Shown here: one piece after another, positions 9,833 to 31,191 of the stretch
Numbering within the stretch: the stretch's first letter is position 1
Layout of the letters: each line of letters opens with the position of its first letter
Origin: Desulfosudaceae bacterium
GTDB taxonomy: Bacteria > Desulfobacterota > Desulfobacteria > Desulfobacterales > Desulfosudaceae
Reading direction: 5' to 3'
Length of the DNA: 64,000 nucleotides
NCBI GenBank assembly: GCA_963674745.2
Contig: CAXXDV010000003.1
Span: forward strand, 1,920,001-1,984,000
The notes under the pieces: model-generated
The model's database searches: none
What the model was told of the DNA's origin: nothing
The model's input: only the letters and a program-made list of their open reading frames with translations
Made by a program: the position numbers and the translations under genes

Positions 9833-10954
9833 TCAGCCTGCCTGCCGTTCAGCGACCGCTTTTACGATCACACCAAGGTTCACCCCTGACCGCTGTATAA
9901 CCCGGCGGCATCGGGCAAACAACAACCCTGAAGCATTGGCGTTTCTCCCGGCCGATTCCCGCCCCAGCACGATCATTGCCGGGAGCAAGGTTTCCTTTAA
10001 CAACATCAGCTTGTCATGTCGTGACGCAAGGCAATTCATCCACAATATATTGCCCCAGTCTCCGATCGAACGGCCCCGTGATCTGAAGCCCAGCAAAGCC
10101 TGTTCAATACCGGAAATACTCATCTCGGAATGACAAAGCCGTGAACCTCCCGGAGGCTGAAAACAGAACATCCTGCCGAGCAGAAAAAAAGCATAGGACA
10201 ATGGTTTCTCCTGTTGAAACAAAAGAGCCCTGTCGTCCAGGCTTTTCCAGAATCCCGCGTCCCTGCCCCTGACAATCAAAAAAAAATCGACCAGCCAGAC
10301 CAGTTTTGAAAATGAATGCTTGATCATATGATGGGCCATATAGATTAAATGGGTAAATTCGTCGGGCACCCGCACAAGAGAAAACTCTTCACCCCAGGGG
10401 AGGGATTGGTTAAATATCTGTCGCTGATGCACAGGAAACAAGGCCTGCCTGCTTTTAATGCGCGATGTATGCATCAAACTGGTGTGCACATCGATCCGGA
10501 CATCATCTTTGTGAAACATCTGGGGGAACCGATGATCTGTTTTATAGCCGTTTTGTTTTAAAACTTCTTTCAGGCCCGACAAATCTTCTTTGCGGACCAG
10601 GAGATCAATGTCCTCCATGGGTCGTAGACCCGGGTCTGCATAAACGGTATCAAGTAAAGCCGCGCCTTTGAGCAGCACCACAGATATGTTTTCTGAGGCA
10701 AGAAGAGACTCAAGGATTTTAAGGTGCTCCCTTCTGAGGGTGTTCATCGCAAGCGTGGAATAATAGGCCTGTTCCAGAAAATGAAAGACGTCAGCAGGAA
10801 TGCCGTCCTGATTCGCCATCAAGCGATAGGCCAACCCCTGGAGCTGTTGTTGCGATAAAAACCGGGTAAACCCGTCCCAGGACTCGGGTGGCCTTGCGGG
10901 TTGATGCAGTAAAAGAGACAGGAGATAGTTCTGAAAACGTAAATCAGACATCAT
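9833..10954 (-). CDS. Nucleotidyltransferase family protein (NTP_transf_5-like, RiPP-associated type)
   Basis: VVLLKG...Y..PGLRPMEDIDLLV, IDVH, H..KH.F..LVWLVD; 4-bp overlap with the upstream peptidase. Confidence 0.85.
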   Translation of the reverse strand: MMSDLRFQNYLLSLLLHQPARPPESWDGFTRFLSQQQLQGLAYRLMANQDGIPADVFHFLEQAYYSTLAMNTLRREHLKILESLLASENISVVLLKGAALLDTVYADPGLRPMEDIDLLVRKEDLSGLKEVLKQNGYKTDHRFPQMFHKDDVRIDVHTSLMHTSRIKSRQALFPVHQRQIFNQSLPWGEEFSLVRVPDEFTHLIYMAHHMIKHSFSKLVWLVDFFLIVRGRDAGFWKSLDDRALLFQQEKPLSYAFFLLGRMFCFQPPGGSRLCHSEMSISGIEQALLGFRSRGRSIGDWGNILWMNCLASRHDKLMLLKETLLPAMIVLGRESAGRNANASGLLFARCRRVIQRSGVNLGVIVKAVAERQAG

Positions 10955-11475
10955 CTTACCCGTAATCTTTTCAAGACAGCCAGATATTTGACGATCAACG
11001 ATTTGAAGCGATAGTATTGTGCCCGGAAACGGTTCAAGATAATCGACCTGAGGCTAAGCATGTCGATCGAAATTAACCCTTTATGTCCCGGGCGTTCGAC
11101 AGAAACAACTCTGCCAAGACATTGTGCGGCGTCCAGGGGTAAATCCATCATATCCAGGGCATCACCTTTTGTATGCAGGATATTGTTATCACCGCCGGTG
11201 CCGTTGTTTTGAATTCTCAAAAGCCGGTGCAGCGCCATGGTTCCATTATCACGTGTACAAAGAACAACGTCCCCGGTTTTAAGCATTGCCGGGGGCACTT
11301 TCCGGATGGTGGCGATATCCCCGTCTTTAAGAGCGGGTGTCATACTGTCTCCGGTAACACGGACACGCAGATCTTTTCCGCTGGCCAGCAACGCTGATGC
11401 GAGTTCGCTCGACAGCGGATGGGTCTCGCGCGGATTGCCGGTTTCACAGGCATGATATTCATGTATTGAATTCAT
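10951..11475 (-). CDS. S24/S26 family peptidase (signal-peptidase-like, no TM anchor)
   Basis: VTGDSMTPALKDGD (catalytic Ser), LHRL, TKGDA..D; start placed at ATG 11475. Confidence 0.82.
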   Translation of the reverse strand: MNSIHEYHACETGNPRETHPLSSELASALLASGKDLRVRVTGDSMTPALKDGDIATIRKVPPAMLKTGDVVLCTRDNGTMALHRLLRIQNNGTGGDNNILHTKGDALDMMDLPLDAAQCLGRVVSVERPGHKGLISIDMLSLRSIILNRFRAQYYRFKSLIVKYLAVLKRLRVR

Positions 11476-12370
11476 TGGCGTTCTCTTGAAAAAAATCCGA
11501 GATCGAAGCATCGGCTCGAAACGTCAACTCATAAGCGGGAATCCGGCTTATCAAGTGGTCACAAAAGGCCATCATGGCGGCTGTTTTTTCTTTATCATAC
11601 CAGGGGATGGATAATACCGGCAACAATCTGCCAATCGTGTCCGAAGCGGAAAGTTCGGCCATCCTGTTCTCCGAGCCCTTGGACAAAAAAGCCATTTGCT
11701 TGAGTTCAACGCCCAGATTGACCGCGTGCCCCCCTTCCCCGGGCCACGGCGTCCCGTGCATTTGAAAGGTATGACCGGTTCTGCGGATGACGATGCGGTC
11801 ATCGCTTAACACCGCTCCAGAATTCAGGCCTGACAGATATCCGGCCAGGGTTGTCTTGCCGGCACCTGATTTTCCCGGGAAAACCCATCCCGAATTGTTT
11901 TGCGCCCATCCTGCCGCATGAACGATGACACCTTCATGATGGGCCAGAAAGTTCATCAGCATGATCTGATCCAGCGGATAGGTGACAGGATTAAGCGCCA
12001 GTGACCGCGTCTGTGTATTAATAATGTCACTGCTGCAGAACACAATGACCCGTCCGGCCTTTAAACAAAGCTGCGCCGTCCAGACCGGTTTTGCGAAAGG
12101 CGGGTATTGATCCGTAACATATAATTCGTCTTGACGAGCATAAACAGACCACGAATCCTGGCTGTCAAAAATTCGCTTGCAGCCCGTTAATTCCGGAGCA
12201 GGGTCTGCGGTCAAAATCACTTCGAGGTGTTCCTGATGGGAGCAGACGCGGTCATTATCGTCTAAGACGAACTGCCGGGAAATGTTTTGCGCCCATGCTT
12301 CTGCCGGCAACTTTAAATGACCGGTATCAACCTTCAGGGCCAGGCCTGCTATTGAAAGGATAAGTTTCAA
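11459..12370 (-). CDS. HPr kinase-like P-loop protein
   Basis: VHAAG, FPGKSGAGKTT, LSDDR, GTPWPG motifs of HprK-related kinases. Confidence 0.8.
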   Translation of the reverse strand: MKLILSIAGLALKVDTGHLKLPAEAWAQNISRQFVLDDNDRVCSHQEHLEVILTADPAPELTGCKRIFDSQDSWSVYARQDELYVTDQYPPFAKPVWTAQLCLKAGRVIVFCSSDIINTQTRSLALNPVTYPLDQIMLMNFLAHHEGVIVHAAGWAQNNSGWVFPGKSGAGKTTLAGYLSGLNSGAVLSDDRIVIRRTGHTFQMHGTPWPGEGGHAVNLGVELKQMAFLSKGSENRMAELSASDTIGRLLPVLSIPWYDKEKTAAMMAFCDHLISRIPAYELTFRADASISDFFQENANEFNT

Positions 12371-12384
12371 AGGTTTACTGGCAC

Positions 12385-12576
12385 TTATGATCCGAGGCTG
12401 AAGCAGGCGGAAGGCGCCACGCAGCTGAAGGGCGGTATGGCTGGCTGGCCTTTGCCCCCGGAGCTACTGACGTTTGTTTTGCACCCCACGGCCAGCACCT
12501 CATCGGCGACCAGCTCTATTATCTTGACGTCCGGTTTCTCATAGGGGCGCTTTTTCGGTTCGCTCTTTTCGGACAT
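12385..12576 (-). CDS. Putative RiPP precursor peptide, 63 aa
   Basis: RBS-like GAGGG; leader KRPYEKPDVKIIEL (YxxP RRE-binding type); core with 3 Cys, many Ser and a C-terminal Ser; sits between the rSAM and the kinase. Confidence 0.8.
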   Translation of the reverse strand: MSEKSEPKKRPYEKPDVKIIELVADEVLAVGCKTNVSSSGGKGQPAIPPFSCVAPSACFSLGS

Positions 12577-13678
12577 GTTCGCCCTCGACTGTCATTTGAT
12601 TAACATTTAATTTTTTTCCCATGCAACGGCCGATGCTGCAGAGATATTCTGAAATCTGTGTTTCAACACCCGTGTCCAGCCGGAAAAAAGCGGGACAGTA
12701 ACCGCAATAAGCACGATTTTCACAGGTTTTACATTCAAACTCAAGGGGAATCTTCTTTTTCCTGATGGCCGGAATCCGGTTTTGCCAACCGTCCATAAAA
12801 GATCCCTTCAAAAGATCATACCAGATATCGCTGACCATCAGGCAGGGTTTCAACCGCCCACCCGGGTCTATATGAAAATTAGTAGTGCCCGCACCGCAGT
12901 CATACAGCACATCGGAAAACGGCACCTGCGCCATCCGTTCCGCAAGCGCCCTCCATTCACCTACCATTCTTGAATCAGTCAGATTTTTTTCCGCCACCTC
13001 ATCCGGCGAAACCCGGTATGCAGCTGGAACGCGACTGCCGTCCAGGCAGGGAAATATCATACCGTCAAAACGGAACTTGATGCTGAAATTTTCAGCTACC
13101 TCTCGGATCCCATCAAATTCATGCCGGTTGATTGACATTAAAACAGTCTTCATCCGTGTCTGGACACCGGCATCAACCAATAATCGAATGCCATTCAGCG
13201 CTTTTTCCATCATGCCTGAACGGCGGGTTATCGCTTCATAGGTCGCTTCCGTTGACCCGTAGAAGGAGACCTCCACACAATTGGGCGGATATTCTTGAAA
13301 CAGCTCAATGATACGTTCGTTTATCAGGGAACCGTTGGTAAAAACGGTTACCACCAGTCCTTTTTTTTTCGCGTGGGCATAAAGGTCCGGGAAGTCTTTT
13401 CGCAGCAGGGGTTCCCCGCCGGTAAACAAAAGATATAAACAACCGGCTTCAGTAATTTCATCAATAATCGTAATCCATTGTTCCGTAGTCAGCTCTTGGG
13501 AAGTCTTATCAGGATTGTTTTTATCCGAACCCAGATAGCAATGAACGCAATCAAAGTTACATCGCCGGGTGATTTCAATATCGCCGCTGATCGGGACTCT
13601 GGCCCTCATGACCCGGCGCGCAAAAGCCATAAATGCGGATTCCGCTTCTATGTTCAATCGTTTCGGACAATCCATCAC
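12539..13678 (-). CDS. Radical SAM/SPASM domain protein (peptide maturase-like)
   Basis: CNFDCVHC (CxxxCxxC), TGGEPLL, FTNG; SPASM Cys set CGAG..IDP.G..KPC...CKTC....CGYCP...C. Confidence 0.93.
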   Translation of the reverse strand: MMDCPKRLNIEAESAFMAFARRVMRARVPISGDIEITRRCNFDCVHCYLGSDKNNPDKTSQELTTEQWITIIDEITEAGCLYLLFTGGEPLLRKDFPDLYAHAKKKGLVVTVFTNGSLINERIIELFQEYPPNCVEVSFYGSTEATYEAITRRSGMMEKALNGIRLLVDAGVQTRMKTVLMSINRHEFDGIREVAENFSIKFRFDGMIFPCLDGSRVPAAYRVSPDEVAEKNLTDSRMVGEWRALAERMAQVPFSDVLYDCGAGTTNFHIDPGGRLKPCLMVSDIWYDLLKGSFMDGWQNRIPAIRKKKIPLEFECKTCENRAYCGYCPAFFRLDTGVETQISEYLCSIGRCMGKKLNVNQMTVEGEHVRKERTEKAPL

Positions 13679-13992
13679 CGCACTTCACATATTAAATCCA
13701 GGTCAATCAACCGGTCGATGAGCTCACAGACATCGTTTCTGGCTACGGACCCGTTAACGGTAAAATTCTCTTCGACCCCATGACAGATTTGGTTTACCCG
13801 GTTTTCCCCGGATAATTGCTCCCACACAAATTCGGCAACCGGATTAAGCATGAATATCCGCTGCATATCAGCCACTTTTCCCCTGATGGGCACCAGGATT
13901 GCCTGACCGGCAATATTGCGGGAAACGATATCGGACTTTTTCTGATAAACACGATCCAGGATTGTTTCCGGGGCAGAACTGTTCATGGGCAT
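13675..13992 (-). CDS. PqqD family protein / RiPP recognition element
   Basis: IVSRNIAGQAILVP...FMLNPVAEFVWEQL...A.NDV.ELI..L....LI; RBS AGAAGGA upstream of ATG 13992 or 13986. The track's longer start overlaps the giant gene. Confidence 0.88.
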   Translation of the reverse strand: MPMNSSAPETILDRVYQKKSDIVSRNIAGQAILVPIRGKVADMQRIFMLNPVAEFVWEQLSGENRVNQICHGVEENFTVNGSVARNDVCELIDRLIDLDLICEVR

Positions 13993-14002
13993 CAATCCTT
14001 CT

Positions 14003-17000
14003 TTACCGGATCTGCAGGGCCGGGTCCCCCAGGAGGCTGTATATATCCTGCATGTAAGGATATTCCAGATTGCCCAGGGCCTGGTAACGTTCAAGGGCGC
14101 GGCTCACCGCCTGGCCGATAGTACCCGCCTTCTCATCAAATAGCACCCAGAACAATTCCTTGTTCATTCTGACAGCCTCACTGTTTATTGACAACCCGGT
14201 CGGTGACCAGGCCGCGATCATCCCCCCGCCGGATCTCAAGACCAGTTCTTCGCTGAGGGTATCCATCCAGGGATACGAAAAATCTCCCGCCAGGCAGGTC
14301 AAGGCAACGTATATCGGAAACTGACCGTTCGTCAACAGTCCCTGATGAGTGGTATTAAAAAAGTTGGACATGACGTCATAGCCGCCATGACCGATATAAT
14401 TGACCAGCCATTCACCACTGTCGACTGCGGCCACAAAGTCGTTGCGCATCTCACCGGCCGTTCGCCCCGGATAATAAAGCGTATCCACCGTAAAGCCGTT
14501 TACCAGGGCCGACACATCGTTACTGTCGGCGGGGAAATTGTTGGATATGGTGCTGTCCGGCTTATCGGCCACCATCAACACGTTGTCACGGGCGCCCGGA
14601 ACACCGGCCTCATAAGCGATAATCTTGGACACATAATCCGACATTTCGTTGATGGTTTTGACCGGAATACGACCCAGGACCACATTTGAAAGCCGGTCTT
14701 CGTCCACATCCCCGTAAATAACATCCGAGGCGTAAATACCGTAAGGCGTAAAGGTCATGACAACCGGCATCAGGTTCCGGACGCTGACGGAAAAGGTCTC
14801 GAGATTATTCTTATAGTCAAACGTACCGTCCCCGACCAGTAACACATACTGCGGAGACATGGTCCATTGGGTAAGCGCGAAATCGATAAAATCCCGGATC
14901 GCGTAAGGATCGTAAACCCCGAATGAGAACTCGTCAAGAACATCCGACAACCGGACCACCATGGGCGTCATACCCCGGCCTGACCGGTAATCAGACAGCA
15001 ACTGGGCGCCGGCGGTCAGCTCATCGGCCGCAATGATCAGATAATCGGCACGATTGGACGGATCTTTCAGGTTGGACGGTTCATCGGCCAGCAGTTCCGG
15101 TTCTTTGACGGCCGAGGGCAATAAGGCCAGATACGGCGTATCGGTGTTTTCCGGGGCCACCGTAATCCGGTTGTTGGTCGTGTCCAGGGCCGCGTTCTGA
15201 ACCCGCCTGGGTGTTTTGGTATCCGACAGATCGAACAAAGAGATATCCGGCCCGGCAAATCCCGTCACGGTAATCACGTCGTTCCCACCGGCAGTAAAAT
15301 GGAGCATATCACCAGCAGCCACATAAGACTTCTGGTAAGTCAGATCAAAGGAATCCACACCAAAGGCGTCATCGGTTGTCAGGCCGACGACCTTGACGGT
15401 ATTGGCACCCTCAACCAGGTACTGCTGATTGAACGAGAAAGTCTTTGACACCGGCTCAAAACCGCTCCAGTTCACTTCACCCAGGTTCAGCTCACTGCCC
15501 GTGCCCTGGTTCAAAATAACATCAGCCCGGTGGAGGTTGTCGCTGAAGCCATGGAAATGAACCGTCAATTCCGCCGTGAACGTATCACCGGGCGCTACGG
15601 CCGGAACATCCAGTGGGAAGGGATCAAAGCCATAAGCCGGCCCGAACTGGGGATTGCCAAGGGTAAAAATGTCCCAGAACCAGAAATCCGCTACGTCAAT
15701 GGGCACATCCGTCTTGAAAAATGTTTCTTTTTCGAAATGAACCGTGGCGGAAAAGGACTTATCTTCGCCGGTTAAGGCCGGAACATTGTCGGCCGATGTT
15801 GCCGTAAAGCCGGCCAGGGCATTCCGGATATAAGCCAGTTCAGCCATGTCCACTTTGCCGTTACCGTTGACATCGGCATCCGAAGCCGCGTAATCCGGTC
15901 GCAGATCACCGGCCGGCCGGCCGGTCATTACGTCCAGCCCGATGGCTAGATCGGCGGCGTCGATCAGGCCGTCATTGTTCAGGTCTCCCATGCCGTTGTC
16001 CGGCATCAGTTTCAGCCAGTAAACATTATGGTCGGTATAAATCGAAGAGAACGCCTCACCGTAAAAATAAATCGCCGAATAATCCGCTTCCGGATAATAA
16101 GCCACCGGTAAACCCCGGTTGGACAAACGGACTTTTCCTGCCGCAAGGGTGTCGATCACGTCAACTTCATTCACGTTCAGGGCCAGGGCCAGCTTGTCCA
16201 CGGCAACCCGGTACAGGCCGGAGGCTTCTACCCGGATCTTCACATCCCGGACGCCGGTCAACGGGCCGGGGCCCACGGAACGTTCCAGCCCGCGGTCAAA
16301 CGATTGGGTCAAGGCGGTGTTGACCGCCATTTTCGACGGCCTTACAACCGCCTCAAAGGATTTTAAACTCCCGTCCGTTTCGGTGGTCGACGAAACCAGC
16401 CGGCGATCCGTCCTTGAGAACCCCTTCCGGAAAAGGTCAGCTTCATGACGGGTATCCATGGCACCATCCACCATATCGGCCGTCACCGTGTAAGGGCCGT
16501 AACGACGCGTCTGTCCCGAGGCTTCCAGCTCAATAAGGTGATAGGTATAGGTTTCACCCGGTTTCGCCGTTGCATCGAGGCACCGGTAAACACCGCCATG
16601 CGGGAAAACCAGCGCCGGTATGGGACGATTCGTCACCCGCATCATACTTCCTTCATCACGACGCGCTACGGTAAACCCGAGGGTGCCCACCTGGGACACG
16701 GTCTCCCATTCCAGGATGACATGGCCGTTCTGAACAAATGCTTTAAAGTAAGATATTACAGCCAGTGTCGGCTTGATTTTAAAAAACCCGAAATCGATGT
16801 CATCGACATCTTCATCGGATGTGAGCGACTCATCTTCCTCACCATCAAAAGGTTCGGTGGTCCCTTCGGTTTTTTCATAAACGATTTCGTATCCATTCAG
16901 AACGCTGTTGATATCGGTAACCCGGACGGTATAATCAACCCCCGGCGCGGGCGTGGCCAACCCGGCAAATGCGTAATCTCCGGATGCATCTGTGGTCGCC

Positions 17001-20000
17001 GTCGCAATCACCACACCGTTCCTGATCAGATCTACGGTTACATTGGCCAGGCGGGGTTCTGTGCCGTCAATGATGCCGTCAACATCATCGTCTTCCCAGA
17101 GGGTGCCGGACAGGCTGCCCGGATTCAGGGTATCGTAACCGAAATCCGCTTCAAAATTGCTGACACCACCGGAAATCTGTACCCGCCGCTGGTGACCGGC
17201 AGCCGATCCATCATTATCCGTCGAGGTCAGATAAAAATCACTCAAGGCGACCTGGGTGTCGTCGATACTGACCCAGTACCAGCCGTCTGAAAGCCCGGAA
17301 AACAGATATTTGCCATTGGCATCCGTGACCAGTATTCCCAGTGAAGCACCGTCATCACCGCCCGGCTCGAAGTTACCGTCATTGTCGACATCGCGATACA
17401 GGGTAACCGTCACGTTTCTGATGCCCGGTTCATCGCCGTCCTGAACACCGTTACCAACCGTTCCGCCTCCCGCGCCATTGTCGTTAAATACCGTATCGCC
17501 AAGGCTGCGGGACAAATTATAACCAAAATGCGGAACGGAGGTGTAATCCAGGTCAACGGTCAACGTGCCGGGCATCTGGAACGACCCGGACAGGGCCGAC
17601 GGGGTGGTGCCGTAATAGCTGTTTAAAACACCCGCCTGATCCGTCACCTCCCAGGTGTAACGGACACCGGCCGGAACACCGGAAAACGTAAAATCGCCAT
17701 TGCTGTCCGTGGTTGTGGTGGCAATGAGATTAAGGCTGGCATCCAGCAGGTCCACGGTCACGCCGGCAAGGCCCCCTTCGGTTCCATCCTGAATACCATT
17801 ATCACCCGTACCTGTCGGCAAGCCGTTGTCCAGCCATACACGGTCTGAAATATCGTATGTCGTACCCGGCGTATTCTGGACGAAACCAAAATCGGCATTA
17901 AGATAGCTGTCGCCGGCATCCACATCCTGATAACTGTATATGCCGGTAATCGGAATGGTGAGATCGTATGCCGGAAGATCCGACTGGTCCACCCATACAA
18001 TATAATCCTCCGTACCGGATGCCGCGACACCTGCAAACAGATAGCGGCCGGCGGCATCCGTATCGGTTTCAATGAAGGGCTCACCTCCGTCGATGATGCC
18101 GTTACCGTTGGTGTCGGTGTAAAGCCTGACCGTAACGCCGGGCAGTCCCGGCTCTCCCGGATCACGGATACCGTCTCTGTCGGCATCACTCCAGACCAGG
18201 TCGCCGAAAAAGGCCGTGCCCGGGTCAGGCTGATACCCCAGATCGGCGTCAAGATATTCGGTCAGGGTTAAGTCGGGTATGGTGTAGGCGATATCCACAT
18301 CATCGATGTTAAAATACTCATCGGCGGCGTCCAAGCCGCTGGTGGCACGAAACCTGACGGTGGTCGTGTCAGAGGCCAGCCCCAGCGCGACCAGGTCATA
18401 TGACCGGCTGCCGCTTCCGGCCGTTCCGTCAAAAGTTTCCAGTACGGTAAAATTCGAACCGTCCGGACTGGCTTCCACCACGATCGTATCGCCGGACTCC
18501 AGATTGGCGGCTTCATAGCCGAAGCTCAGCGTGGCGCTGTTGGCGTGTTCAATATCCGCGACACGTTTGATCAGGGAACCGGCAGCGCTGTTGCTGCCGC
18601 TATACGCGATATTGACGTTATCAAGACGTACCCGGTCATTGTCATTATTCCAGGTGGAGCCGGAACGGAACCGCAGGGTAATGGTGGGGTCGGCCGGATC
18701 CCAGGCAATCGGAAAGGAATAACTGCCGTCATCGTTGTTATCCAGAACCACCAGGGGGGTATAAGAAGCACCGCCGTCAGCACTGTATTCGGCGATCACG
18801 GTTTCCCCGGCTTCAATTCCGGCGTCATCATAATCAAAGCTGACGGTCACCGAGTCCGCTCCGGTCACGGTCTGGCTTCTCAAAATGGCATCATCGACAT
18901 CGCACCGGCGTAGTTGCAGCCGATTATTATTATTCTGGAGTTGAATGGTCCCGGTGCTGTAATCCGGCGTTCCGGGGTCGTTTTCTTCGGTCCAGGGGCC
19001 GTTGTTCCAGCCGGTTCCGCCATTGTAGGTGTTGTCCGTGGTAAAGGGATCATTGGCATTTCCGCTGACAATACCCGGCCGGAACTGCAGGTCTCCGCCC
19101 GTAATCCAGATGGTCCCGGTGCCGGCGCCGGCACCGGAGGGGTCTGTTTCCACCCAGTCCCCGTTCCAGTTGGCGGTACCGTCGTCATTGTCGTAAGCGG
19201 CACTTGAAAATTCGTCCCGGTAATTTCCGGAACTGGCGGCAATGGAAAGATCAAAGGAATCGGTCCGGTTGTCGGTCCGCCCGTCGGTGGTCTGGACCAG
19301 GCCGGGCGGAAGGCCATCGGTTATCTCGACATAATAGCCTGTGTCTATTTCCACATCGGAAAACTGGTAGTAGCCGATACTGTTGGTCAGCATGGTCTGC
19401 AAAGGTGTACCGTACTGATCTTTCAAGGTCACTTTGACATTGGGGATGCCGGATTCGCCCAGATCCAGAATACCGTTTCCGTTGGCGTCAAGCCATACCC
19501 GGTCCCCCACTACGGCGCTGCTCTGGTCCGGATTGACCACCGGATCGGTGACCGAAGCGCTGACGGGGGTGAATATTTCACTGCTGGTGACCGAAGCCGT
19601 ATTGGTGATCTCCGTAATGCCCGTTGCCAGTGGATCATCTATCGTCGCCTGGAACGTAAGGATAAGGGACTGGCCGGCAGCCAGATCATAATTGTCGCCG
19701 GACAGGACAAAGCCGGGCGGATCATGCCCCGCAACGGTGGTTATCCCGCCACTGTAGGCAATATTTACATTATCGATATCACAGTATTCACCGTCGGCAT
19801 CAATCCCGCCGGAAACACGAAACTGCACCGTGGTGGCGCTTCCGATATACGAACTGATATCATAAGAAAGATCCGGTTGAGCGGTATTGTCTCCGTCAAA
19901 CGTCTGCAGGGGGGTAAACGTGGCCCCGCCGTCTGAATTGATCTCGGCCACGATCGTATCGCCGGACTCCAGATTCGCGGCGCTGTAATCAAAACTCAGG

Positions 20001-22912
20001 GTGGCGCTGGTGGCACCGGTAAGGTCGACGCTGCGGTTGATAAGGGAACCGGAAGCGCTGGCCGTTGCGGAAAAAGTGATGTCCACATTATCAAGGTATA
20101 CGTAGTCATTGTCCCAGCTCCAGGTAGAACCTGAATTGGAACGGAACCGAAGGGTAATCGTGTTATTAACCGGATTCCAGACGATCGGAAAGGAATAACT
20201 TCCGGTCATGCCATCATCCAGCGTGACCAGTGACGTGTATCCACCTCCGGTACTGTATTCGGCAATTACCGTTTCACCGGCTTCAACACCAGCATCCGTG
20301 TAATCAAAACTGACGGTAACAAGCGTCGCACCGGCCACATTCGCCGTCCTCAGAATGGCATCATCGGGTTCGCACTGCCTTAATTCAAGCCGATTATTTC
20401 CATTACTGAGCCGAATGGTTCCCGTACTGTAATCCGGCGTGCCGGCGTCGTTTTCTTCTGTCCAGGCCCCGGTCCAGCTTCCGGTTCCGCCATTATAAGT
20501 ATCATCTGTGGTGAAAGGATCATTCGCACTTCCGCCGGCAGTGGTTCCCGGCCGGAATTGCAGCGCCCCCCCCGTAACCCAGACGGCGCCGCTGCCGGGA
20601 CCGGCACCGAATGAGTCAGTTTCTGTCCAATCACCGGACCAGTTGGCCGTGCCGTCGTCATTGTCGTAAGCGGCGCTTGAAAACTCGTCCCGTACGTTGG
20701 CAGACACCGGCCCCTCTACCTCGGCACTTGCCGCCACATAGGTGACGCCCGAAGGCATGGCATCATAAACCGAGATATTATTTAACGTGGTGGTGCCTGA
20801 ATTGGTTACCGTAACCGTGTACGTGACGGTGTCTCCCGGATAAGCAGCGGTGGCAATGTCCGAGGTTTTGGTGACATCCATATCTTCGTTGCCGTATGTG
20901 ACAAAGGCAAAATCCGACGTGGTAAATGTCTGGGGCACTCCCTCCACTGTCCGGGTGCCGATGGCGGTCACATCATTCTTGGAAAGATCGCCCACGGCAA
21001 AATTCTGGGTCGTCCGCCCGTCAAAAGAGATATAGAGTTTCTGGTTTGGGGCCATGGTGCCCAGAATAGCGCTTCCCCATGTCAGGGTTCGATTGTCAGG
21101 CCCGGAAGGTGTCGGGTCAGTTATGCCCGGGCTGCTGCCGTCCGGCAGGGTGATCTGAGTGGTGCCGCCCACATATTCCCAATCGGGCGGGAGTAAATCG
21201 ATCACCTCGATATCGTCGACCGGGTATTTTCCGGTTTCCACCTCCAGGGTAAATGTTGTCTGCTGGGGAGAAGCGGTGGGGATTATACCGGGATCCACGC
21301 TTTTGTTCACCCTCAGGACCAGATCGATAAAATCACTGCCGGGAATTGTCGTATATCCGACGTCAATGGCCGGCGTGGCAGCCGGGGCCCCGGGATTCTG
21401 ACCGTAGGCGGCCACATAGGGGCCGGTGGCGTAAATATTGGCTTCCGTCATGTCACCGTCATTGGGATCAAATACATACTGGGAATCCAGGCGATCAAGA
21501 TCGTAAAAAACATCAAAAGGATTTGCGTCCGACGGATTATAATCGATAAATATCCGGGTATTATCCTGAGCGGGAGAGAGATATACACCGGAATTGTCGG
21601 CGTCCCCACCTGTCCCCACCGGGTATGATCCCGGCGCCCATCCCATGAAATGTTCATTCTCCAGCAAAAACGCCGGCACCAGGCTGTATCCCCAGTCATG
21701 GGTCCGGCCGGCCCCGAAATCAGCCGCGTCTCCGTCAGAGGTATCAATAGTAGAGACGCCCCAGAACACATCACTGGCTGACAGGTAAACACCAGATGTC
21801 AGGGGGACATACCCCCCCGTGCCCTGAAAATAGGAACGGGTGGTTTTGGGATTGATGTTAAACCATCCGGACCCGCCGCCATTGGTCTGGTAGTCAATCC
21901 GTAAGACCGTATCATTGGGATTGTAGAGATAGATATCCGTATCCCCGTTATTGGCTGAAGTACCGCTGTTCACCGGCGCGTAATACTCATTGTCCCAGAA
22001 CCCCCGGGGAAAGGCGGACAATCCCCTGACTTCATAATTAGACCCCTGGTCCCCCACGACATATTGTACCTGGATAGTCGCGGAAGCCTGGATTCTTGTG
22101 CCGGCAATCAGCAGATTATCTGCCGTACTGCCATTGACCGCAGCGCCGTTAATGGCCTGGTCGCCCATGGTGACCCTGTCTAACAAAAGCACATCCCCCT
22201 GGTTAAGCGTATGGGTTGTGCCGTCAAGCGTGCCGTCGCGGTCCCAGTCAAGCTGGTCATAGACGCCGTCCTTGTCCAGGTCCACCTGGATTACTGTTCC
22301 ATCAGCGGTTGCCTGGATCAGGTTATAGACCCGGTCAAAATCCCAGTAGTTCTTGGCCGCGTCTCTGGCCAGATCTTCGCCGAAAGGCATGATATAAGTG
22401 GTGAGCTGCGGTCGAACCGGATAGACCTCCCAGGCAACGGCCAGGAGGGTCCCGGCCGCTTCGGTCCAGGAAGCACGGGCCACGGTGACGGCCCCTCCGG
22501 CCACGTATATGTGATCCCTGCCGTCATAATACGTGGCGGTACCGCGCGGGTTGTTGGGGACATCGGTCCCCTCGAAAATCTCACTGTCCCCGCGGGGAAC
22601 AATCAAGCGGATTTCATCAGCGGTGGCGGCAGGATCGGCCTTATCAAAATCGTATCCGTCTTCCCAGTGATCGTAATACACGGTGGTATTTGGCGACCAG
22701 GCTGTCACCGAAATAATGGAATGCAGAGGGCCTGAAACATCATCATATGCAATGTCATCCAATACAAATGACATGAGATTCTCATCCCCGGGAATAAAAT
22801 ATTCGGAATATCCCGCTGAGGCGGCCCCGAATGCCTGACCGGCTGTAAAAACAATACAGAAGAAAACCATCAGAAAACGGATTAACGCTTGCGGCTTGTT
22901 ATGACAATTCAT
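14003..22912 (-). CDS. Giant secreted multidomain protein: DUF11 and SdrD-B-like repeats, duplicated beta-rich module, dockerin-like domain, C-terminal C25 (gingipain-family) cysteine peptidase
   Basis: Signal peptide; DUF11-like VTKT..PGDTVTYTVTVTN; five GDxVWxD..G..D..E.G...V.V.L-type repeats; GDLNNDGLID/ADVNGNGKVD pair; C25 motifs ADYLII, YVLLVGD, GRIPV, NYIGHG, TCLAGDF, LLGDPAL. Confidence 0.88.
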   Translation of the reverse strand: MNCHNKPQALIRFLMVFFCIVFTAGQAFGAASAGYSEYFIPGDENLMSFVLDDIAYDDVSGPLHSIISVTAWSPNTTVYYDHWEDGYDFDKADPAATADEIRLIVPRGDSEIFEGTDVPNNPRGTATYYDGRDHIYVAGGAVTVARASWTEAAGTLLAVAWEVYPVRPQLTTYIMPFGEDLARDAAKNYWDFDRVYNLIQATADGTVIQVDLDKDGVYDQLDWDRDGTLDGTTHTLNQGDVLLLDRVTMGDQAINGAAVNGSTADNLLIAGTRIQASATIQVQYVVGDQGSNYEVRGLSAFPRGFWDNEYYAPVNSGTSANNGDTDIYLYNPNDTVLRIDYQTNGGGSGWFNINPKTTRSYFQGTGGYVPLTSGVYLSASDVFWGVSTIDTSDGDAADFGAGRTHDWGYSLVPAFLLENEHFMGWAPGSYPVGTGGDADNSGVYLSPAQDNTRIFIDYNPSDANPFDVFYDLDRLDSQYVFDPNDGDMTEANIYATGPYVAAYGQNPGAPAATPAIDVGYTTIPGSDFIDLVLRVNKSVDPGIIPTASPQQTTFTLEVETGKYPVDDIEVIDLLPPDWEYVGGTTQITLPDGSSPGITDPTPSGPDNRTLTWGSAILGTMAPNQKLYISFDGRTTQNFAVGDLSKNDVTAIGTRTVEGVPQTFTTSDFAFVTYGNEDMDVTKTSDIATAAYPGDTVTYTVTVTNSGTTTLNNISVYDAMPSGVTYVAASAEVEGPVSANVRDEFSSAAYDNDDGTANWSGDWTETDSFGAGPGSGAVWVTGGALQFRPGTTAGGSANDPFTTDDTYNGGTGSWTGAWTEENDAGTPDYSTGTIRLSNGNNRLELRQCEPDDAILRTANVAGATLVTVSFDYTDAGVEAGETVIAEYSTGGGYTSLVTLDDGMTGSYSFPIVWNPVNNTITLRFRSNSGSTWSWDNDYVYLDNVDITFSATASASGSLINRSVDLTGATSATLSFDYSAANLESGDTIVAEINSDGGATFTPLQTFDGDNTAQPDLSYDISSYIGSATTVQFRVSGGIDADGEYCDIDNVNIAYSGGITTVAGHDPPGFVLSGDNYDLAAGQSLILTFQATIDDPLATGITEITNTASVTSSEIFTPVSASVTDPVVNPDQSSAVVGDRVWLDANGNGILDLGESGIPNVKVTLKDQYGTPLQTMLTNSIGYYQFSDVEIDTGYYVEITDGLPPGLVQTTDGRTDNRTDSFDLSIAASSGNYRDEFSSAAYDNDDGTANWNGDWVETDPSGAGAGTGTIWITGGDLQFRPGIVSGNANDPFTTDNTYNGGTGWNNGPWTEENDPGTPDYSTGTIQLQNNNNRLQLRRCDVDDAILRSQTVTGADSVTVSFDYDDAGIEAGETVIAEYSADGGASYTPLVVLDNNDDGSYSFPIAWDPADPTITLRFRSGSTWNNDNDRVRLDNVNIAYSGSNSAAGSLIKRVADIEHANSATLSFGYEAANLESGDTIVVEASPDGSNFTVLETFDGTAGSGSRSYDLVALGLASDTTTVRFRATSGLDAADEYFNIDDVDIAYTIPDLTLTEYLDADLGYQPDPGTAFFGDLVWSDADRDGIRDPGEPGLPGVTVRLYTDTNGNGIIDGGEPFIETDTDAAGRYLFAGVAASGTEDYIVWVDQSDLPAYDLTIPITGIYSYQDVDAGDSYLNADFGFVQNTPGTTYDISDRVWLDNGLPTGTGDNGIQDGTEGGLAGVTVDLLDASLNLIATTTTDSNGDFTFSGVPAGVRYTWEVTDQAGVLNSYYGTTPSALSGSFQMPGTLTVDLDYTSVPHFGYNLSRSLGDTVFNDNGAGGGTVGNGVQDGDEPGIRNVTVTLYRDVDNDGNFEPGGDDGASLGILVTDANGKYLFSGLSDGWYWVSIDDTQVALSDFYLTSTDNDGSAAGHQRRVQISGGVSNFEADFGYDTLNPGSLSGTLWEDDDVDGIIDGTEPRLANVTVDLIRNGVVIATATTDASGDYAFAGLATPAPGVDYTVRVTDINSVLNGYEIVYEKTEGTTEPFDGEEDESLTSDEDVDDIDFGFFKIKPTLAVISYFKAFVQNGHVILEWETVSQVGTLGFTVARRDEGSMMRVTNRPIPALVFPHGGVYRCLDATAKPGETYTYHLIELEASGQTRRYGPYTVTADMVDGAMDTRHEADLFRKGFSRTDRRLVSSTTETDGSLKSFEAVVRPSKMAVNTALTQSFDRGLERSVGPGPLTGVRDVKIRVEASGLYRVAVDKLALALNVNEVDVIDTLAAGKVRLSNRGLPVAYYPEADYSAIYFYGEAFSSIYTDHNVYWLKLMPDNGMGDLNNDGLIDAADLAIGLDVMTGRPAGDLRPDYAASDADVNGNGKVDMAELAYIRNALAGFTATSADNVPALTGEDKSFSATVHFEKETFFKTDVPIDVADFWFWDIFTLGNPQFGPAYGFDPFPLDVPAVAPGDTFTAELTVHFHGFSDNLHRADVILNQGTGSELNLGEVNWSGFEPVSKTFSFNQQYLVEGANTVKVVGLTTDDAFGVDSFDLTYQKSYVAAGDMLHFTAGGNDVITVTGFAGPDISLFDLSDTKTPRRVQNAALDTTNNRITVAPENTDTPYLALLPSAVKEPELLADEPSNLKDPSNRADYLIIAADELTAGAQLLSDYRSGRGMTPMVVRLSDVLDEFSFGVYDPYAIRDFIDFALTQWTMSPQYVLLVGDGTFDYKNNLETFSVSVRNLMPVVMTFTPYGIYASDVIYGDVDEDRLSNVVLGRIPVKTINEMSDYVSKIIAYEAGVPGARDNVLMVADKPDSTISNNFPADSNDVSALVNGFTVDTLYYPGRTAGEMRNDFVAAVDSGEWLVNYIGHGGYDVMSNFFNTTHQGLLTNGQFPIYVALTCLAGDFSYPWMDTLSEELVLRSGGGMIAAWSPTGLSINSEAVRMNKELFWVLFDEKAGTIGQAVSRALERYQALGNLEYPYMQDIYSLLGDPALQIR
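18300..20695 (-). repeat. Intragenic duplication of a module of roughly 300 aa within the giant protein
   Basis: RDEFSSAAYDNDDGTANW...ANDPFTTD.TYNGGTG...AANLESGDTIV occurs twice; DNA near-identical at an offset of about 1470 bp (e.g. 18478 vs 19948). Boundaries approximate. Confidence 0.85.
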
Positions 22913-23079
22913 TTTTTTTTATCCTCTGCACAAAAACATGGTGATATGTAAATCACCGGGGCCGAACTCGGCTTTTTCAAGAAAGGCGGACAAAATCTGC
23001 CTTGAAGGACCTGAACAGTTATCTTCATCAGCGGAAAAGGATGGCTTTAAATTAACCTGTCGGCGCCCGTCAAAAATGT

Positions 23080-24846
23080 TTAAGGAACACATGTGCCTAT
23101 AAAACACCCGGAAGAACCGCCACCGCCACCACTGCTGCTGTTGCTGCTACTTCCGGTTTCAGGCGCGACAATCCCACCCGGATCGATAATCACCCCGTTG
23201 GCCACACCGTCCAGGTCACCCGGGCCGCCATCCGTCAAAGTCAGGGTCAGAGAGCGCATACCTTCAGCAAACACGGCATATCCGCTGAAATCGTAAAAGC
23301 TCTGATCAACCGTGGTCTTCCACCATTGCGATCCGGACGTCATTTTTTCGGAAAAACCGATGGTGATGGTTACGGTAGCACCGGAAACGGCGGTCTTCAA
23401 CCGGAACGACAGCAGGCCATGGGTGAAATTGACCGGCCAGAAACCGGCATTTTTAAAATCTTCGGCCGGCGCCCATCTGAAACGCTCAATATTTTCCACG
23501 CCTTCATCTGCAGCCAGACTGAAGCGCAGACCGTTGGCACGGGACTGCAGGACCAAGCCCTCATCACCGGCATCGATTAAATTCGTCTGAATATTCCCGT
23601 TCACGACATCCTGATCATCCGGGACACCGTTTCCGTCATCATCCCTTACCGGGTCGGCACCAGTGGTAAACTCGCCCGCAGTTTCCCACGGTCCGGTGTC
23701 ATAACGAATCCGCCAGTAGTAGGTCGTATAAGCATCCAGTATGAGATCCGGAAGTTGAATTTCCGTCACATCATAGGGGCCGGTATATTCAAACAGCAGA
23801 TTGGTGAAGGTGCTGTCGGTACTGATCTGCCAGACGATGACCGCGTCCGGTCCGACCGTGTCGGGGCCGGGGAACGGCTCTATCTCCATCACCGGATTCA
23901 GGGAAACATCAATGGCACCGTTGGCCGGGCCGATCAGGACATCATGGCAGTCGGGAATACCGTCTTCATCACTGTCAGCATCGGCTACCCCGCAGCCACA
24001 GGCGCCCGGTTCGGTTTTTAACGGGTCATCGGGACATTCGTCCTCATTGTCCGGCACACCGTCATTATCCGAATCCACAACCGGATTAACATCGTTATCG
24101 TCGCCACCCGGCTCCATACCCGGATCGTCGTCAGGCGGTGTCACGCCGCCACTGTTACCCAGGACATTAAAAACAAACAAAGGCTGCTCATCAAACCCGT
24201 CCTTGACAACAGCGGCTTCCATTCCATCCGTATCGTCACGACCGGCCCCACTGTCCGGTCCAAACAGGTACAAAAGGGGCACGTTTTCCGTCAGATCTTT
24301 ATCTGCCGGGTTGAAAACCCCGTTATTGTTATTGTCAGTCCCCCAACCGGCCGGGCCGTTACAAAGTCGGCTCTGAAAAAGGCGCATGCTGTGGATGCCG
24401 GCCGGGGCGGCGCTTTTAACCCGAAAAACAACGGTAAACAACGTTAACGGTTCCGAACCCGCATCTAAAGCCGAGGGTTGTTTGAAAATGCCGGTTAAAA
24501 AAACCGTTCCCGGATTCTCTGTGTTGCTTGACCAGAAAGAGCCCATACCGGGTTCGCCACTCATATCATCCCGGTGAATTTCAAAAACCGATGTGGTCAC
24601 CGCCTCGGATTCCAATGAAAGCACATTTCCCGGGTACGTCAGAGAAAAGGCAGCACCTTCGAACGAGGAGATATCCGACGCAACGATATTGACGGTCAAC
24701 AGCGTAGCCCCTCGAAGATTTCTAGGCGTACCATCCAGACCAATCGTTACGGCAAATGAATTTGCTGCCGGAAAAAACAGGCAAACAAAAGCCAGAAAAA
24801 CAGACAGGAGGATATTCTGTCCTATTTTATTGTTCTTGAGTCTCAT
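23080..24846 (-). CDS. Secreted surface protein: cohesin-like domain, TSP3-like Asp-rich repeats, FN3-like domain, choice-of-anchor-U-like domain, Gly/Ser-GCFI tail
   Basis: Signal peptide; TVNIVASDISSFEGAAFSLTYP..VL (cohesin-like); DSDNDGVPDNEDECPDDP; GLLSFRL...LTLTDGGPGDLDGVANGVIIDPGG; ends SSSGGGGGSSGCFIGTCVP. Confidence 0.8.
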   Translation of the reverse strand: MRLKNNKIGQNILLSVFLAFVCLFFPAANSFAVTIGLDGTPRNLRGATLLTVNIVASDISSFEGAAFSLTYPGNVLSLESEAVTTSVFEIHRDDMSGEPGMGSFWSSNTENPGTVFLTGIFKQPSALDAGSEPLTLFTVVFRVKSAAPAGIHSMRLFQSRLCNGPAGWGTDNNNNGVFNPADKDLTENVPLLYLFGPDSGAGRDDTDGMEAAVVKDGFDEQPLFVFNVLGNSGGVTPPDDDPGMEPGGDDNDVNPVVDSDNDGVPDNEDECPDDPLKTEPGACGCGVADADSDEDGIPDCHDVLIGPANGAIDVSLNPVMEIEPFPGPDTVGPDAVIVWQISTDSTFTNLLFEYTGPYDVTEIQLPDLILDAYTTYYWRIRYDTGPWETAGEFTTGADPVRDDDGNGVPDDQDVVNGNIQTNLIDAGDEGLVLQSRANGLRFSLAADEGVENIERFRWAPAEDFKNAGFWPVNFTHGLLSFRLKTAVSGATVTITIGFSEKMTSGSQWWKTTVDQSFYDFSGYAVFAEGMRSLTLTLTDGGPGDLDGVANGVIIDPGGIVAPETGSSSNSSSGGGGGSSGCFIGTCVP

Positions 24847-25034
24847 ATCCTGATTCACCAGCCATTTTGTCAACCTTGCAGAGGGAAAAGGTCGCCTCTA
24901 ACTGCCTAAAGCTTTAACTAACCGATATAATACATATTAAAATCAGACCGTGGTATTAATAGCAGAAAATACATGAATAAGTGAAAAATCGATCACGGCT
25001 GAAGATATGTATATTCAACACTAAAAGTTAAAAA

Positions 25035-25050
25035 TGCAATTTTTGTACCA
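25035..25050 (-). promoter_or_regulatory. Predicted sigma-54 (-24/-12) promoter
   Basis: Minus strand TGGTACAAAAATTGCA matches TGGYAC-N5-TTGC with exact GG-N10-GC spacing; about 190 bp upstream of the 24846 start. Confidence 0.75.
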
Positions 25051-25341
25051 TTCGCCCGCCATTTTCAACACAACAGCCAGTTTGTTCTCATTATCTCAGC
25101 GTGACCGCTGTCGCAAATGAAACCTTTTAGCAAAAAAACCCTTTAACATAATAAAATCTAATGGTTAAAAACAATCCCCCTTCTTGGGAGCATCTTTGAC
25201 AATTTCAAGCTGCCCCCGGCATTAACAAAAAAAGCTACCTATGGGGGAACGTCAGCCCCATTACCACCCGTCGCCCTGCCCCCAAAAAACAGGAAATGAC
25301 GATTTTTGTAATTTAACCGACCAGTTTTGTTACAAATCCTT

Positions 25342-26700
25342 TTAAGAATGCGTTTCCGATGGGCGGTATTCAAGCATGGGTAATACACAAACAATACCGG
25401 TCAAAAACCAGAATGGCTCCATGATACGGACAATAATAAACGTGTTGGCGGCCAGGGCGTGAAACAGCAGTCCGACAAAGCCGGCAATATATCCCACACA
25501 TAAACCACGATAAAAAGGTTCCGCCGTATTCCGCAGGCTGAAAAAAGCCATTCTGAATACAGCGTAAATTAAAAACATAAACGTTATCAGCCCCAGAACA
25601 CCTGCTTCAACCAGTACGCGCGGGTACTGGGAATCAATAAAACGATGACCGGTAATACCGTATCCCAGTAAAGGACTTCTGGTCCAGTCCATTACCGCTT
25701 CCTTTAGGCCGAAAAGCCTGGCTGAGGTTGAAGTATCAAGCCGGAAACCGCCGAAACTAACCTGAGCCTGTACCTGGTGTACAGGCTGGGTGAAAGTGTA
25801 TAAAATCCGATCTTTTACCACCCTGGGAAGCAAAAGTGGACTAACAATTACAAAAAGGCTCAACAGCGCGATCAAAAGCCCTCTTTTTCGGGAAAAAAGG
25901 CTGATAAACAGTAGCATGGGCAACATCGCCAGATAGGATGCTCGGGACTGGGTGAATAGAAACGGCGGAATCATGACCGACAGGAGAACGAATGTCAGTT
26001 CTTTAATCCTGGTTTTTTCACTATACAGCAAAATACCCAGGGTAATGGCCGTCATGAATACCAGATATCCGCCGAATGTATTGGGCTCTCCTGTCTCTCC
26101 TTCAAAAGGGGCGCTGACCCGTCCGCCGCCGGGTATCTGCATAACACCGATGATGGACACAATAAAACAAGTCAGGAAAAGGCAAAAAACAAAACGATTT
26201 ATCTGGTCCTTACCCCGGATATGATTAACCGTCATAAAAAAAACTATGAAATACTCGAAATACTTTAGAACAAAAAACATACCGGTCTTGGGATCTACCC
26301 GCCCGGCCATGATCCCCCATACGGTTGCGATCACACAGGCCAGTAAATACAGGAATATGGGTTTATTCAACGGGGTTTTAAGAAAAAGCCCCAAATCCTT
26401 GTAAATCGCATTGCGGGCGAACCAGCCGGCACCGATGATGATCAGCAGAAAATCATCAAACCGTAGCGTAATGCCCCTGCCCAGAGAACCACCGGCAGTA
26501 GTGCCGACCACAAATTCAGGCGACAGCAGCATTGAAAAAATGAGCAGATATAGGCCAAATTCGAGATTGACAAAAGAAAAGATAAAAACAAGCAGGCCCA
26601 GGATGCCGATGAAAACATGCCAGGGCGGAAACTGGGAGACAGCAAATCCGGCGGTCAACGCCAGCAGAAAAAAACCTATAACAGAAAATAATTGTCTCAC
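25342..26700 (-). CDS. O-antigen ligase / Wzy-like polymerase family membrane protein
   Basis: Polytopic; R.SAPF..EPNTFGGYL, TQSRASY, SAR, PLLGYG, LVEAGVLG. Confidence 0.85.
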   Translation of the reverse strand: MRQLFSVIGFFLLALTAGFAVSQFPPWHVFIGILGLLVFIFSFVNLEFGLYLLIFSMLLSPEFVVGTTAGGSLGRGITLRFDDFLLIIIGAGWFARNAIYKDLGLFLKTPLNKPIFLYLLACVIATVWGIMAGRVDPKTGMFFVLKYFEYFIVFFMTVNHIRGKDQINRFVFCLFLTCFIVSIIGVMQIPGGGRVSAPFEGETGEPNTFGGYLVFMTAITLGILLYSEKTRIKELTFVLLSVMIPPFLFTQSRASYLAMLPMLLFISLFSRKRGLLIALLSLFVIVSPLLLPRVVKDRILYTFTQPVHQVQAQVSFGGFRLDTSTSARLFGLKEAVMDWTRSPLLGYGITGHRFIDSQYPRVLVEAGVLGLITFMFLIYAVFRMAFFSLRNTAEPFYRGLCVGYIAGFVGLLFHALAANTFIIVRIMEPFWFLTGIVCVLPMLEYRPSETHS

Positions 26701-28973: not shown

Positions 28974-29026
28974 GTTTACCTGTTTATAGTTCTGCGTTAC
29001 CTGCTTACCGGCAACTGTTTCAGAGG

Positions 29027-31177: not shown

Positions 31178-31191
31178 TGAGTAAACACTCC

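Follow-up and report, generated by a model that had tools for sequence, protein, structure and literature searches.

A three-cysteine radical SAM peptide cassette coupled to a giant PorU-like C25 protein in a Desulfosudaceae surface locus, and its possible role in protein anchoring

Here, we analysed a stretch of 64,000 nucleotides from a Desulfosudaceae genome (assembly GCA_963674745.2, contig CAXXDV010000003.1, positions 1,920,001 to 1,984,000; hereafter the window), in which a cassette for a peptide that is made by the ribosome and modified after translation (a RiPP) lies directly behind the gene of a giant secreted protein with a C25 protease domain and next to a large set of surface glycan genes. 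The association of such cassettes with C25 proteins exceeds chance across genomes, and an Ig-like domain of the giant, here termed PT domain, is a candidate for the sorting signal read by the C25 enzyme. Gene neighbourhoods and domain swaps support the view, already put forward in a first-pass annotation of this DNA, that the product would serve surface assembly rather than killing. The locus possibly belongs to a widespread system for protein sorting outside Bacteroidota, whose PorU-like C25 enzyme would read its own Ig-like signal and ligate cargo onto a cross-linked peptide tied via a terminal phosphoserine to polysaccharide.

The stop codon of the giant gene (TAA, 14005-14003) is followed by two candidate start codons (ATGs at 13992, 10 bp away, and 13986, 16 bp away) of a stand-alone PqqD-type RiPP recognition element (RRE), both preceded by an AAGGA ribosome site; the narrow gap noted in the first-pass annotation is thus real. 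In the order giant, PqqD, radical S-adenosylmethionine (SAM) enzyme, peptide, kinase, S26 peptidase and NTP_transf_5 nucleotidyltransferase, the spacings are 10, −4, −38, 14, −53 and −4 bp. Every long open reading frame (ORF) within 9833-54747 lies on the minus strand, in agreement with the co-orientation described before, and the next gene (54999-55769) likewise. Since this run contains gaps of 167 bp (22912-23080), 468 bp (24873-25342, AT-rich) and 410 bp (46822-47233), it may comprise more than one transcript. The 468-bp gap probably carries a promoter for the block of cohesin-fold protein, giant and cassette; a promoter-like match (9/12) lies at 25068-25039, in a scan that was near chance overall (22 found, 16.0 expected), as was the terminator scan. 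Giant and peptide are single-copy in the 5.5-Mb genome, which is 99.96% complete. The closest relatives are labelled Desulfococcaceae and other Thermodesulfobacteriota.

For comparison across genomes, 166 loci were gathered by their radical SAM gene, with two scans that each kept the best 80 of about 580 matches, and profiles were built from these loci. Loci with at least two of PqqD, kinase and peptide were taken as related cassette loci (n = 114). A C25 protein was present in 43 of these, in 41 cases no more than about 200 bp from a called cassette ORF, whereas a C25 protein of the giant's type occurred in only 16 of 221 sampled genomes of the phylum. The association is therefore beyond chance; related genomes are not independent in any of the co-occurrence counts given here. 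In quick IQ-TREE and FastTree trees, which took up C25-positive loci regardless of flank and others only with 4-kb flanks or a score of 220 bits, the radical SAM enzyme of the window belongs to a clade of 37 rows (FastTree support 99; 31 rows at SH-aLRT 94 in IQ-TREE). Within this clade, in which the link is concentrated, C25 is adjacent in 29 rows including the window, a strong match lies on another contig in 3 and one 2.5-Mb genome has none; the remaining 4 rows are contigs of about 2 kb, so that 32 of 33 informative members have a C25 protein, 29 of them beside the cassette. Strong C25 matches are confined, among 41 near relatives, to five genomes, precisely those whose radical SAM enzyme is closest. 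The C25 gene can lie upstream, downstream or inside the cassette, and the link, which spans at least seven phyla, also survives separation onto other contigs.

The reverse test, starting from C25, revealed PqqD, kinase, S26, transferase or radical SAM genes around C25 in 10 of 20 loci, from 8 of 12 genomes. The cassettes found in this way have a different, PqqD-fused radical SAM enzyme and a 34-37-aa peptide, and one is without radical SAM. Seven other C25 genomes comprise two with such genes about 15 kb away, three with none and two on short contigs. An initial conclusion that most C25 genomes have no cassette, drawn from single-protein searches (kinase in 2 of 16), was abandoned as fetching the locus DNA showed the low sensitivity of these searches. 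NTP_transf_5 proteins occur in 12 of 16 C25 genomes versus 54 of 205 others. The absence of an ABC exporter and of a recognisable immunity gene, as claimed before, holds for all 39 ORFs scanned in the window, but the genome has an MsbA-like ABC transporter in a second cassette on another contig; likewise, none of 23 C25 loci flanked by at least 4 kb on either side yielded a peptide exporter or immunity gene. S26 occurs in 15 of these 23 and is missing from 8, and the idea that C25 replaces S26 was rejected as both occur together in the 15. As a separate observation, L252, L259, L260, L261 and L263 contain a second cassette type around C25 proteins of 1000-1100 aa, composed of PqqD, the 34-37-aa peptide (YEKP leader, tiny Cys/Ser core), PqqD-fused radical SAM enzyme, kinase, C25 and S26; L261 is the one without radical SAM.

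The giant consists, in this order, of a signal peptide, a head (aa 30-535), a stalk of DUF11 and SdrD_B repeats, the PT domain, a dockerin (2309-2366) and a PorU-like region with the C25 domain (2432-2968). It belongs to the C25 peptidases (clan CD), with a PF01364 match above cut-off and a His/Cys dyad (H2842/C2873) that aligns with gingipain R and is invariant in 45 of 45 relatives. Its best NCBIfam match is the sortase PorU (NF033707, residues 2432-2968), at 191-195 bits below the cut-off of 420. An Arg/Lys specificity read from the gingipain S1 Asp was dropped, as this residue is kept in only 21 of 45 relatives. The type IX C-terminal domain (CTD) gave 0 matches in the source genome versus 80 and 127 in two control genomes, while other type IX parts were not searched for; type II secretins are present. 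We use the label 'adhesin' because of the stalk repeats and of an IgGFc_binding-like head (PF17517) in some relatives. A model of the head (predicted local distance difference test, pLDDT, 68) had no clear Foldseek match, and Atlas matches to DUF11/IgGFc_binding clusters remained below 0.9 and serve as leads only.

How might such a protein be anchored? A search with the head, which could return no proteins longer than 1631 aa, found 198 relatives of up to that length. Among the best 120, a sortase domain occurs in 21, behind LPxTG (9) or IPxTG (12), and is C-terminal in the 7 that were checked; 11 carry a PT domain without C25, one a type IX CTD and many a hydrophobic helix with a basic tail. 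As sortase or PT domains form the tails of head relatives, the tail appears to be an exchangeable anchoring device, and PT plus C25 would occupy the place of LPxTG plus sortase. The PT domain starts with Pro-Thr at residue 2048 of the giant; of 18 stand-alone proteins picked by hand, 12 have it at most 12 residues from the C-terminus, and it is C-terminal in 9 of the 11 head relatives. Strong PT matches (E < 1e-15) are found in 14 of 221 phylum genomes, 12 of which also have C25. Six genomes hold 10 to at least 22 copies (G071, G167, G176, G197, G227, G255), five of them with C25 and G227 without a C25 match. In 50 cassette genomes, the PT domain is present in 26 of 28 with C25 and strongly in 1 of 22 without, as judged with a profile built largely from C25 proteins. 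No NCBIfam family corresponds to the domain, and in the source genome no PT cargo other than the giant was found. The pattern is that of a CTD and its sortase, which makes the PT domain a candidate sorting signal; from domain swaps and architecture, the C25 enzyme is probably a self-anchoring transpeptidase for which the PT domain serves as signal. For the peptide (53 rows) and the C25 module (585 aa, 33 rows), a predicted complex scored 0.02 and was used neither for nor against this view.

The second partner, the 63-aa precursor peptide, is real; no Pfam or NCBIfam family covers it. The gathered loci contain 106 related peptide ORFs (a few cut by contig ends), of which 92 end in Ser and 77 have three Cys. 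A profile made from 53 ORFs pre-filtered for three Cys and a Ser/Thr end matched 2331 representatives at E ≤ 0.001, and in 147 short ones of the best 150 matches the Pro of the YxxP motif always lies 17 residues ahead of Cys-Lys, a regularity that is partly circular. The cassette enzymes have retained their key residues: C44 and C47 of the radical SAM enzyme and C261, C279, C316, C319, C325 and C328 of its SPASM domain are invariant in 75 relatives, H151, Walker A G166-T174 and D190 of the kinase are conserved across 118, S56, H95 and D117 of the S26 peptidase are kept in 90-95% of 96, and D115 and D117 of NTP_transf_5 in 94% of 53. SkfB is the nearest solved relative of the radical SAM enzyme, while sequence searches gave no significant solved relatives for kinase and PqqD. 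The S26 peptidase, in which no hydrophobic segment was detected, is likely the leader peptidase.

The closest known systems are the linear polyphosphorylated peptide (LPP) clusters of Bacillota, which comprise LppA, LppK, LppB, LppS, LppD and LppN (Popov et al. 2026, PMC13381572). There, LppS cuts the leader with help of the RRE and LppK phosphorylates Ser; the leader contains a Glu eleven residues past the YxxP Pro and is cut one residue later. The clusters (RRE, HprK kinase, SpI peptidase, NTP transferase) sit in capsular polysaccharide loci, and the role of phosphorylated RiPPs at these sites is stated to be unknown (PMC13381572). The window shares the stand-alone RRE, the HprK-like kinase, the SpI-like leader peptidase, the NTP transferase, the YxxP leader with Glu at the same spacing (E26) and the setting in a polysaccharide locus. 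In contrast to LPP clusters, it has a radical SAM/SPASM enzyme, a three-Cys core and a coupled C25 giant; an MsbA-like transporter is absent from its 39 ORFs and from the 23 well-flanked C25 loci, while the second cassette of the genome has one. Positions P+15/P+17 are Val/Cys and the conserved Ser is terminal, whereas LPP peptides have FET and a Ser at core position 3. The earlier statement that no described system has this combination therefore needs to be divided: the four-gene core and its capsular setting are already known from LPP, while radical SAM enzyme, three-Cys core and C25 giant are absent there. The terms 'radical', 'rSAM', 'C25' and 'gingipain' do not appear in the main text of PMC13381572. 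Searches of open-access full texts found no published account of the radical SAM three-Cys family, its C25 coupling or the PT domain, nor of a substrate or acceptor assigned to PorU-like enzymes outside type IX secretion.

A second group of relatives are the lasso peptides paeninodin and pseudomycoidin (PadeK, PsmK, PsmN). PsmK phosphorylates the C-terminal Ser, and PsmN, whose DxD motif is needed, is required for a hexose on that phosphate (PMC6993621). The window resembles these pathways in the C-terminal Ser as kinase target, the DxD nucleotidyltransferase and the YxxP-type leader, but its ORFs include neither a macrolactam cyclase nor the B2 protease family, and a Cys-rich core, S26 peptidase and radical SAM enzyme are found instead. 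The C25 module is to be compared with PorU, the type IX C25 signal peptidase and sortase, whose cargo is amide-linked to seryl or glycyl (aminoacyl) sugars (PMC7468200). Common to both are the intact His/Cys dyad, the PorU-like upstream region, the glycan neighbours and an Ig-like domain that would serve as C-terminal signal. The giant differs from PorU, however, in that its C25 domain is fused to its own 2000-residue passenger, scores at 191 bits against a cut-off of 420, is coupled to a RiPP cassette and resides in a genome with type II secretin and without type IX CTD.

Taken together, we tentatively propose PorU-like surface anchoring without type IX secretion, with a modified ribosomal peptide as acceptor and anchor. 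PqqD would bind the YxxP leader and the radical SAM enzyme, as its family membership suggests, would cross-link the three-Cys core, probably by thioethers. By analogy with homologous systems, the kinase may then phosphorylate the C-terminal Ser and the nucleotidyltransferase let a sugar join that phosphate, as in pseudomycoidin, which would tie the peptide to the glycan made next door. The S26 peptidase would remove the leader after V27, a cut predicted because E26 has the same spacing as the Glu of LPP, where cleavage occurs one residue later. Once the giant is secreted, C25 may cut just ahead of the PT domain, as the domain swaps suggest, and join the head and stalk of 2000 residues to a peptide amine, either the new N-terminus or the conserved Lys33; of all steps, this choice of acceptor is the weakest. 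The dockerin may finally keep the enzyme part on the neighbouring cohesin-fold protein. Such a peptide would offer an amine at one terminus and carry a phospho-sugar at the opposite one; with its gene behind that of a sortase-like enzyme and no exporter alongside, this would suit a linker. Of the roles considered in the first-pass annotation (inhibitor, activator, acceptor, linker), acceptor or linker fits best.

Several observations weigh against this proposal. In the 59 well-flanked cassette loci (at least 4 kb on both sides), C25 was found in 23, Wza/Wzc/Wzy-type genes in 11, both in one and neither in 26; thus, 36 have no C25, and C25 stands with Wza/Wzc/Wzy in only 1 of 23 loci and never together with the nucleotidyltransferase. 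In the phylum sample, the radical SAM type of the window occurs in 18 genomes and C25 in 16, and both in only 4. The co-occurrence profiling called for in the first-pass annotation thus gave a divided answer, favourable for the 43 of 114 cassette loci and the 32 of 33 members of the window clade, and unfavourable for the 26 of 59 loci with neither neighbour and the 4 of 18 radical SAM genomes with C25. Moreover, 3 of 15 C25 genomes show no cassette nearby. Identities of radical SAM enzyme and C25 protein covary over 29 pairs (Spearman 0.75; 0 of 2000 permutations), which speaks for the coupling, but shared ancestry alone would yield this as well. The shares of tail types are biased by the length limit of the head search. 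The modifying enzymes are predicted to be cytoplasmic while the giant, with its signal peptide, is secreted, which leaves peptide export unexplained. Finally, a cohesin-dockerin pair could hold the entire giant without any transpeptidation.

Other explanations were considered as well. It is rather unlikely that the C25 protein is a self-anchoring sortase that, like PorU, attaches its cargo directly to a polysaccharide amino sugar, while the peptide would be a separate, co-expressed LPP-like phospho-glycopeptide of the surface matrix and not the link. This chemistry is published for PorU (PMC7468200), LPP and paeninodin clusters are described in capsular loci without C25 (PMC13381572), many cassettes have no C25, and the glycan genes of the window include an aminotransferase, a deacetylase and WbqC. 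In nearly all loci, however, the partners of C25 are PqqD or kinase genes rather than glycan genes, and this holds for at least two enzyme types; WbqC does not track C25 (6 of 21 C25 genomes versus 16 of 24 others), for which reason WbqC as maker of the C25 acceptor sugar was dropped as a general explanation. The tight gene coupling and the covariation would also suit a peptide that is substrate or regulator of C25, either trimmed by the protease after export or, in its cross-linked form, holding the protease latent or switching it on. Cys1-Lys is found beside C25 in 32 of 38 cases versus 7 of 18 in transferase-only loci, and the Gly-Ser end in 32 of 41 versus 4 of 24, both comparisons being confounded by kinship; S26, moreover, is missing from 8 of 23 C25 loci. 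We regard such a role as unlikely: S26 is present in the other 15, leader peptidase activity is proven for LppS (PMC13381572), the gingipain S1 Asp is poorly kept, and a maturation protease needs neither a 2000-residue stalk nor a domain common to dozens of cargo-like proteins.

Surface loci are known insertion hot spots, and an ordinary secreted, possibly antibacterial RiPP cluster might share a mobile surface island with an adhesin, the link being positional only. The patchy distribution (10 of 41 near relatives) is in line with this, and exporters may act in trans, such as the MsbA-like ABC transporter of the second cassette. Such hitchhiking is very improbable, as the link survives reordering and contig separation across at least seven phyla and no exporter or immunity gene accompanies the 23 C25 loci.

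Compared with the cassette-C25 pair, the connection to the glycan locus is looser, and of the earlier claim that cassette, C25 and glycan genes form one system, the part that holds is the coupling of the first two. As a 10-kb flank cannot see past the giant gene, 29 genomes with C25 and cassette were searched more widely. A transferase was found somewhere in 26 of them. In 7, the source genome among them, Wzc is no more than about 20 kb away from giant or cassette, a lower bound given many short contigs. The HD-ExeA-Wza-Wzc-Wzy block of the window recurs in three other genomes with cassette and C25 giant (Wzc 44-46% identical), with the giant on another contig in all three and the transferase inside the glycan block in two. 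Thus, the transferase goes with the glycan genes, whereas C25 goes with the core of the cassette, and the window is unusual in uniting all three. Apart from this, the window (33219-36755) and the genomes G146, G037, G022, G153 and G263 have WbqC on one contig with the cassette or its transferase and no more than about 35 kb away; four of these five genomes have no C25. It may be the peptide cassette, and not C25, that the WecA-DegT-PIG-L-WbqC block accompanies.

The secreted protein encoded ahead of the giant comprises a cohesin-fold domain (aa 38-240), acidic repeats, a choice-of-anchor U part and a Gly-rich tail ending in a Cys motif. The top fold matches of a model of aa 38-240 (pLDDT 60) are cohesins (Z 12.1, root-mean-square deviation 2.9 over 125 residues; Foldseek E 3.8e-5), with pilin domains scoring within 1.5 Z. 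The giant holds the only dockerin of the genome (28 bits over a cut-off of 22.9; 22.5 bits in the family scan of the window). Dockerins occur in 6 of 37 long C25 proteins; four checked genomes with a dockerin-bearing C25 protein all have a cohesin relative, whereas of four whose C25 protein lacks a dockerin, three have no cohesin relative and one gave a weak match. Fold and co-occurrence make this protein the likely partner of the dockerin. The pair resembles non-cellulosomal cohesin-dockerin systems in the cohesin fold beside a dockerin, as judged by fold matches, and differs in being the only pair of the genome, attached to a C25 giant and without carbohydrate-active enzyme. The Gly-Cys tail, for which no NCBIfam match was found, presumably resembles lipid-anchored sorting tails. 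About eight more proteins at several contig positions of the genome share the choice-of-anchor U or acidic-repeat parts.

Two further families were compared with the cassette. It shares PqqD, radical SAM/SPASM enzyme and HprK-like protein with SynChlorMet (TIGR04248-TIGR04251), including weak ScmD and ScmE matches, but all scores are below cut-off (29/100, 108/400, 76/400), a ScmC match was not obtained and only one radical SAM enzyme is present where SynChlorMet has two. A true ScmC member lies elsewhere in the source genome (144.9 over a cut-off of 125). With sactipeptides and ranthipeptides (SkfB, AlbA, StsB), which carry thioether chemistry, the cassette has in common an RRE-dependent radical SAM/SPASM enzyme and a Cys-rich precursor, while its enzyme is far below all family cut-offs and its PqqD is separate; kinase, transferase and S26 are not known to belong to those pathways.

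One nearly complete genome, in which the giant is single-copy, holds peptide machinery, enzyme, candidate signal, tether and glycan genes together, which makes the proposal directly testable. If the linker reading is true, a RiPP would act as covalent protein-to-glycan anchor, a new use of ribosomal peptides and a new peptide ligase for protein engineering, and LPP-type as well as kinase-bearing lasso clusters in capsular loci would gain a function. Should it fail, an uncharacterised radical SAM RiPP family (>2000 sequence clusters) and a candidate sorting signal are left.

Table 1 Features of the peptide cassette, the giant gene and the adjoining glycan locus in the window
Feature	Position	Strand	Basis
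NTP_transf_5 nucleotidyltransferase (PsmN/LppN-like), 373 aa	9833..10954	-	PF14907 139 bits
S24/S26 peptidase, archaeal-type signal peptidase I-like, without membrane anchor	10951..11511	-	PF00717 33 bits; TIGR02228 47 bits (cut-off 52)
HprK-like kinase, 303 aa	11459..12370	-	weak TIGR04355/TIGR04352 matches, 31 and 23 bits (cut-off 200)
63-aa precursor peptide	12385..12576	-	YxxP leader, E26, C32-K33, C52, C58, C-terminal Gly-Ser
Radical SAM/SPASM maturase, 379 aa	12539..13678	-	PF04055
Stand-alone PqqD/RRE, 105 aa	13675..13992	-	PF05402 48 bits
Giant secreted protein, 2969 aa	14003..22912	-	PF01364 238.5 bits, SdrD_B x5, DUF11
Ig-like PT domain within giant	16463..16783	-	aa about 2043-2152
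Secreted 597-aa protein, cohesin-fold domain	23080..24873	-	NF041766 87 bits and fold matches
468-bp AT-rich gap	24874..25341		sequence
Polysaccharide export block: Wzy_C, Wzc, FG-GAP/Wza, ExeA-like ATPase, HD-domain protein	25342..33100	-	family scan
Glycan synthesis: WecA-like, DegT aminotransferase, PIG-L deacetylase, WbqC, GT4 and GT9 transferases, Gmd, methyltransferases, Wzx flippase	33219..54747	-	family scan

Some minor observations were made along the way. The second cassette of the source genome (L205, C1:153000-173000, on another contig) is related and LPP/SynChlorMet-like; besides the MsbA-like ABC transporter it contains an NTP transferase, two radical SAM genes, tandem PqqD, split kinase-like ORFs and S26, adjoins EpsL and a second Wza/Wzc, and yielded no precursor by profile or motif. 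L207:7526-9404 encodes a ScmC-S26 fusion (ScmC above cut-off) with a small upstream ORF and a PqqD-like stretch, beside dnaX. A 661-aa fusion of Lgt, a prolipoprotein diacylglyceryl transferase, with C25, both above the Pfam cut-off, is encoded at L208:12257-14242 (minus strand) and is possibly a lipid-transferring sortase-like enzyme. Large secreted proteins (P0302, P0304, P0312, P0346, P0357, P0368, P0391 and 14 more), several labelled Anaerolineae/Chloroflexota, carry LPxTG/IPxTG directly ahead of their own C-terminal sortase domain and appear to be self-sorting adhesin-sortase fusions. Giant genes are in pieces in four long-read-type assemblies (L031, L033, L035, L089), which may reflect sequencing errors. 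Outside the co-oriented run, the window encodes at 5543-7120 (plus strand) a MinD/ParA-type ATPase fused to DnaJ-like and RodZ-like HTH domains.

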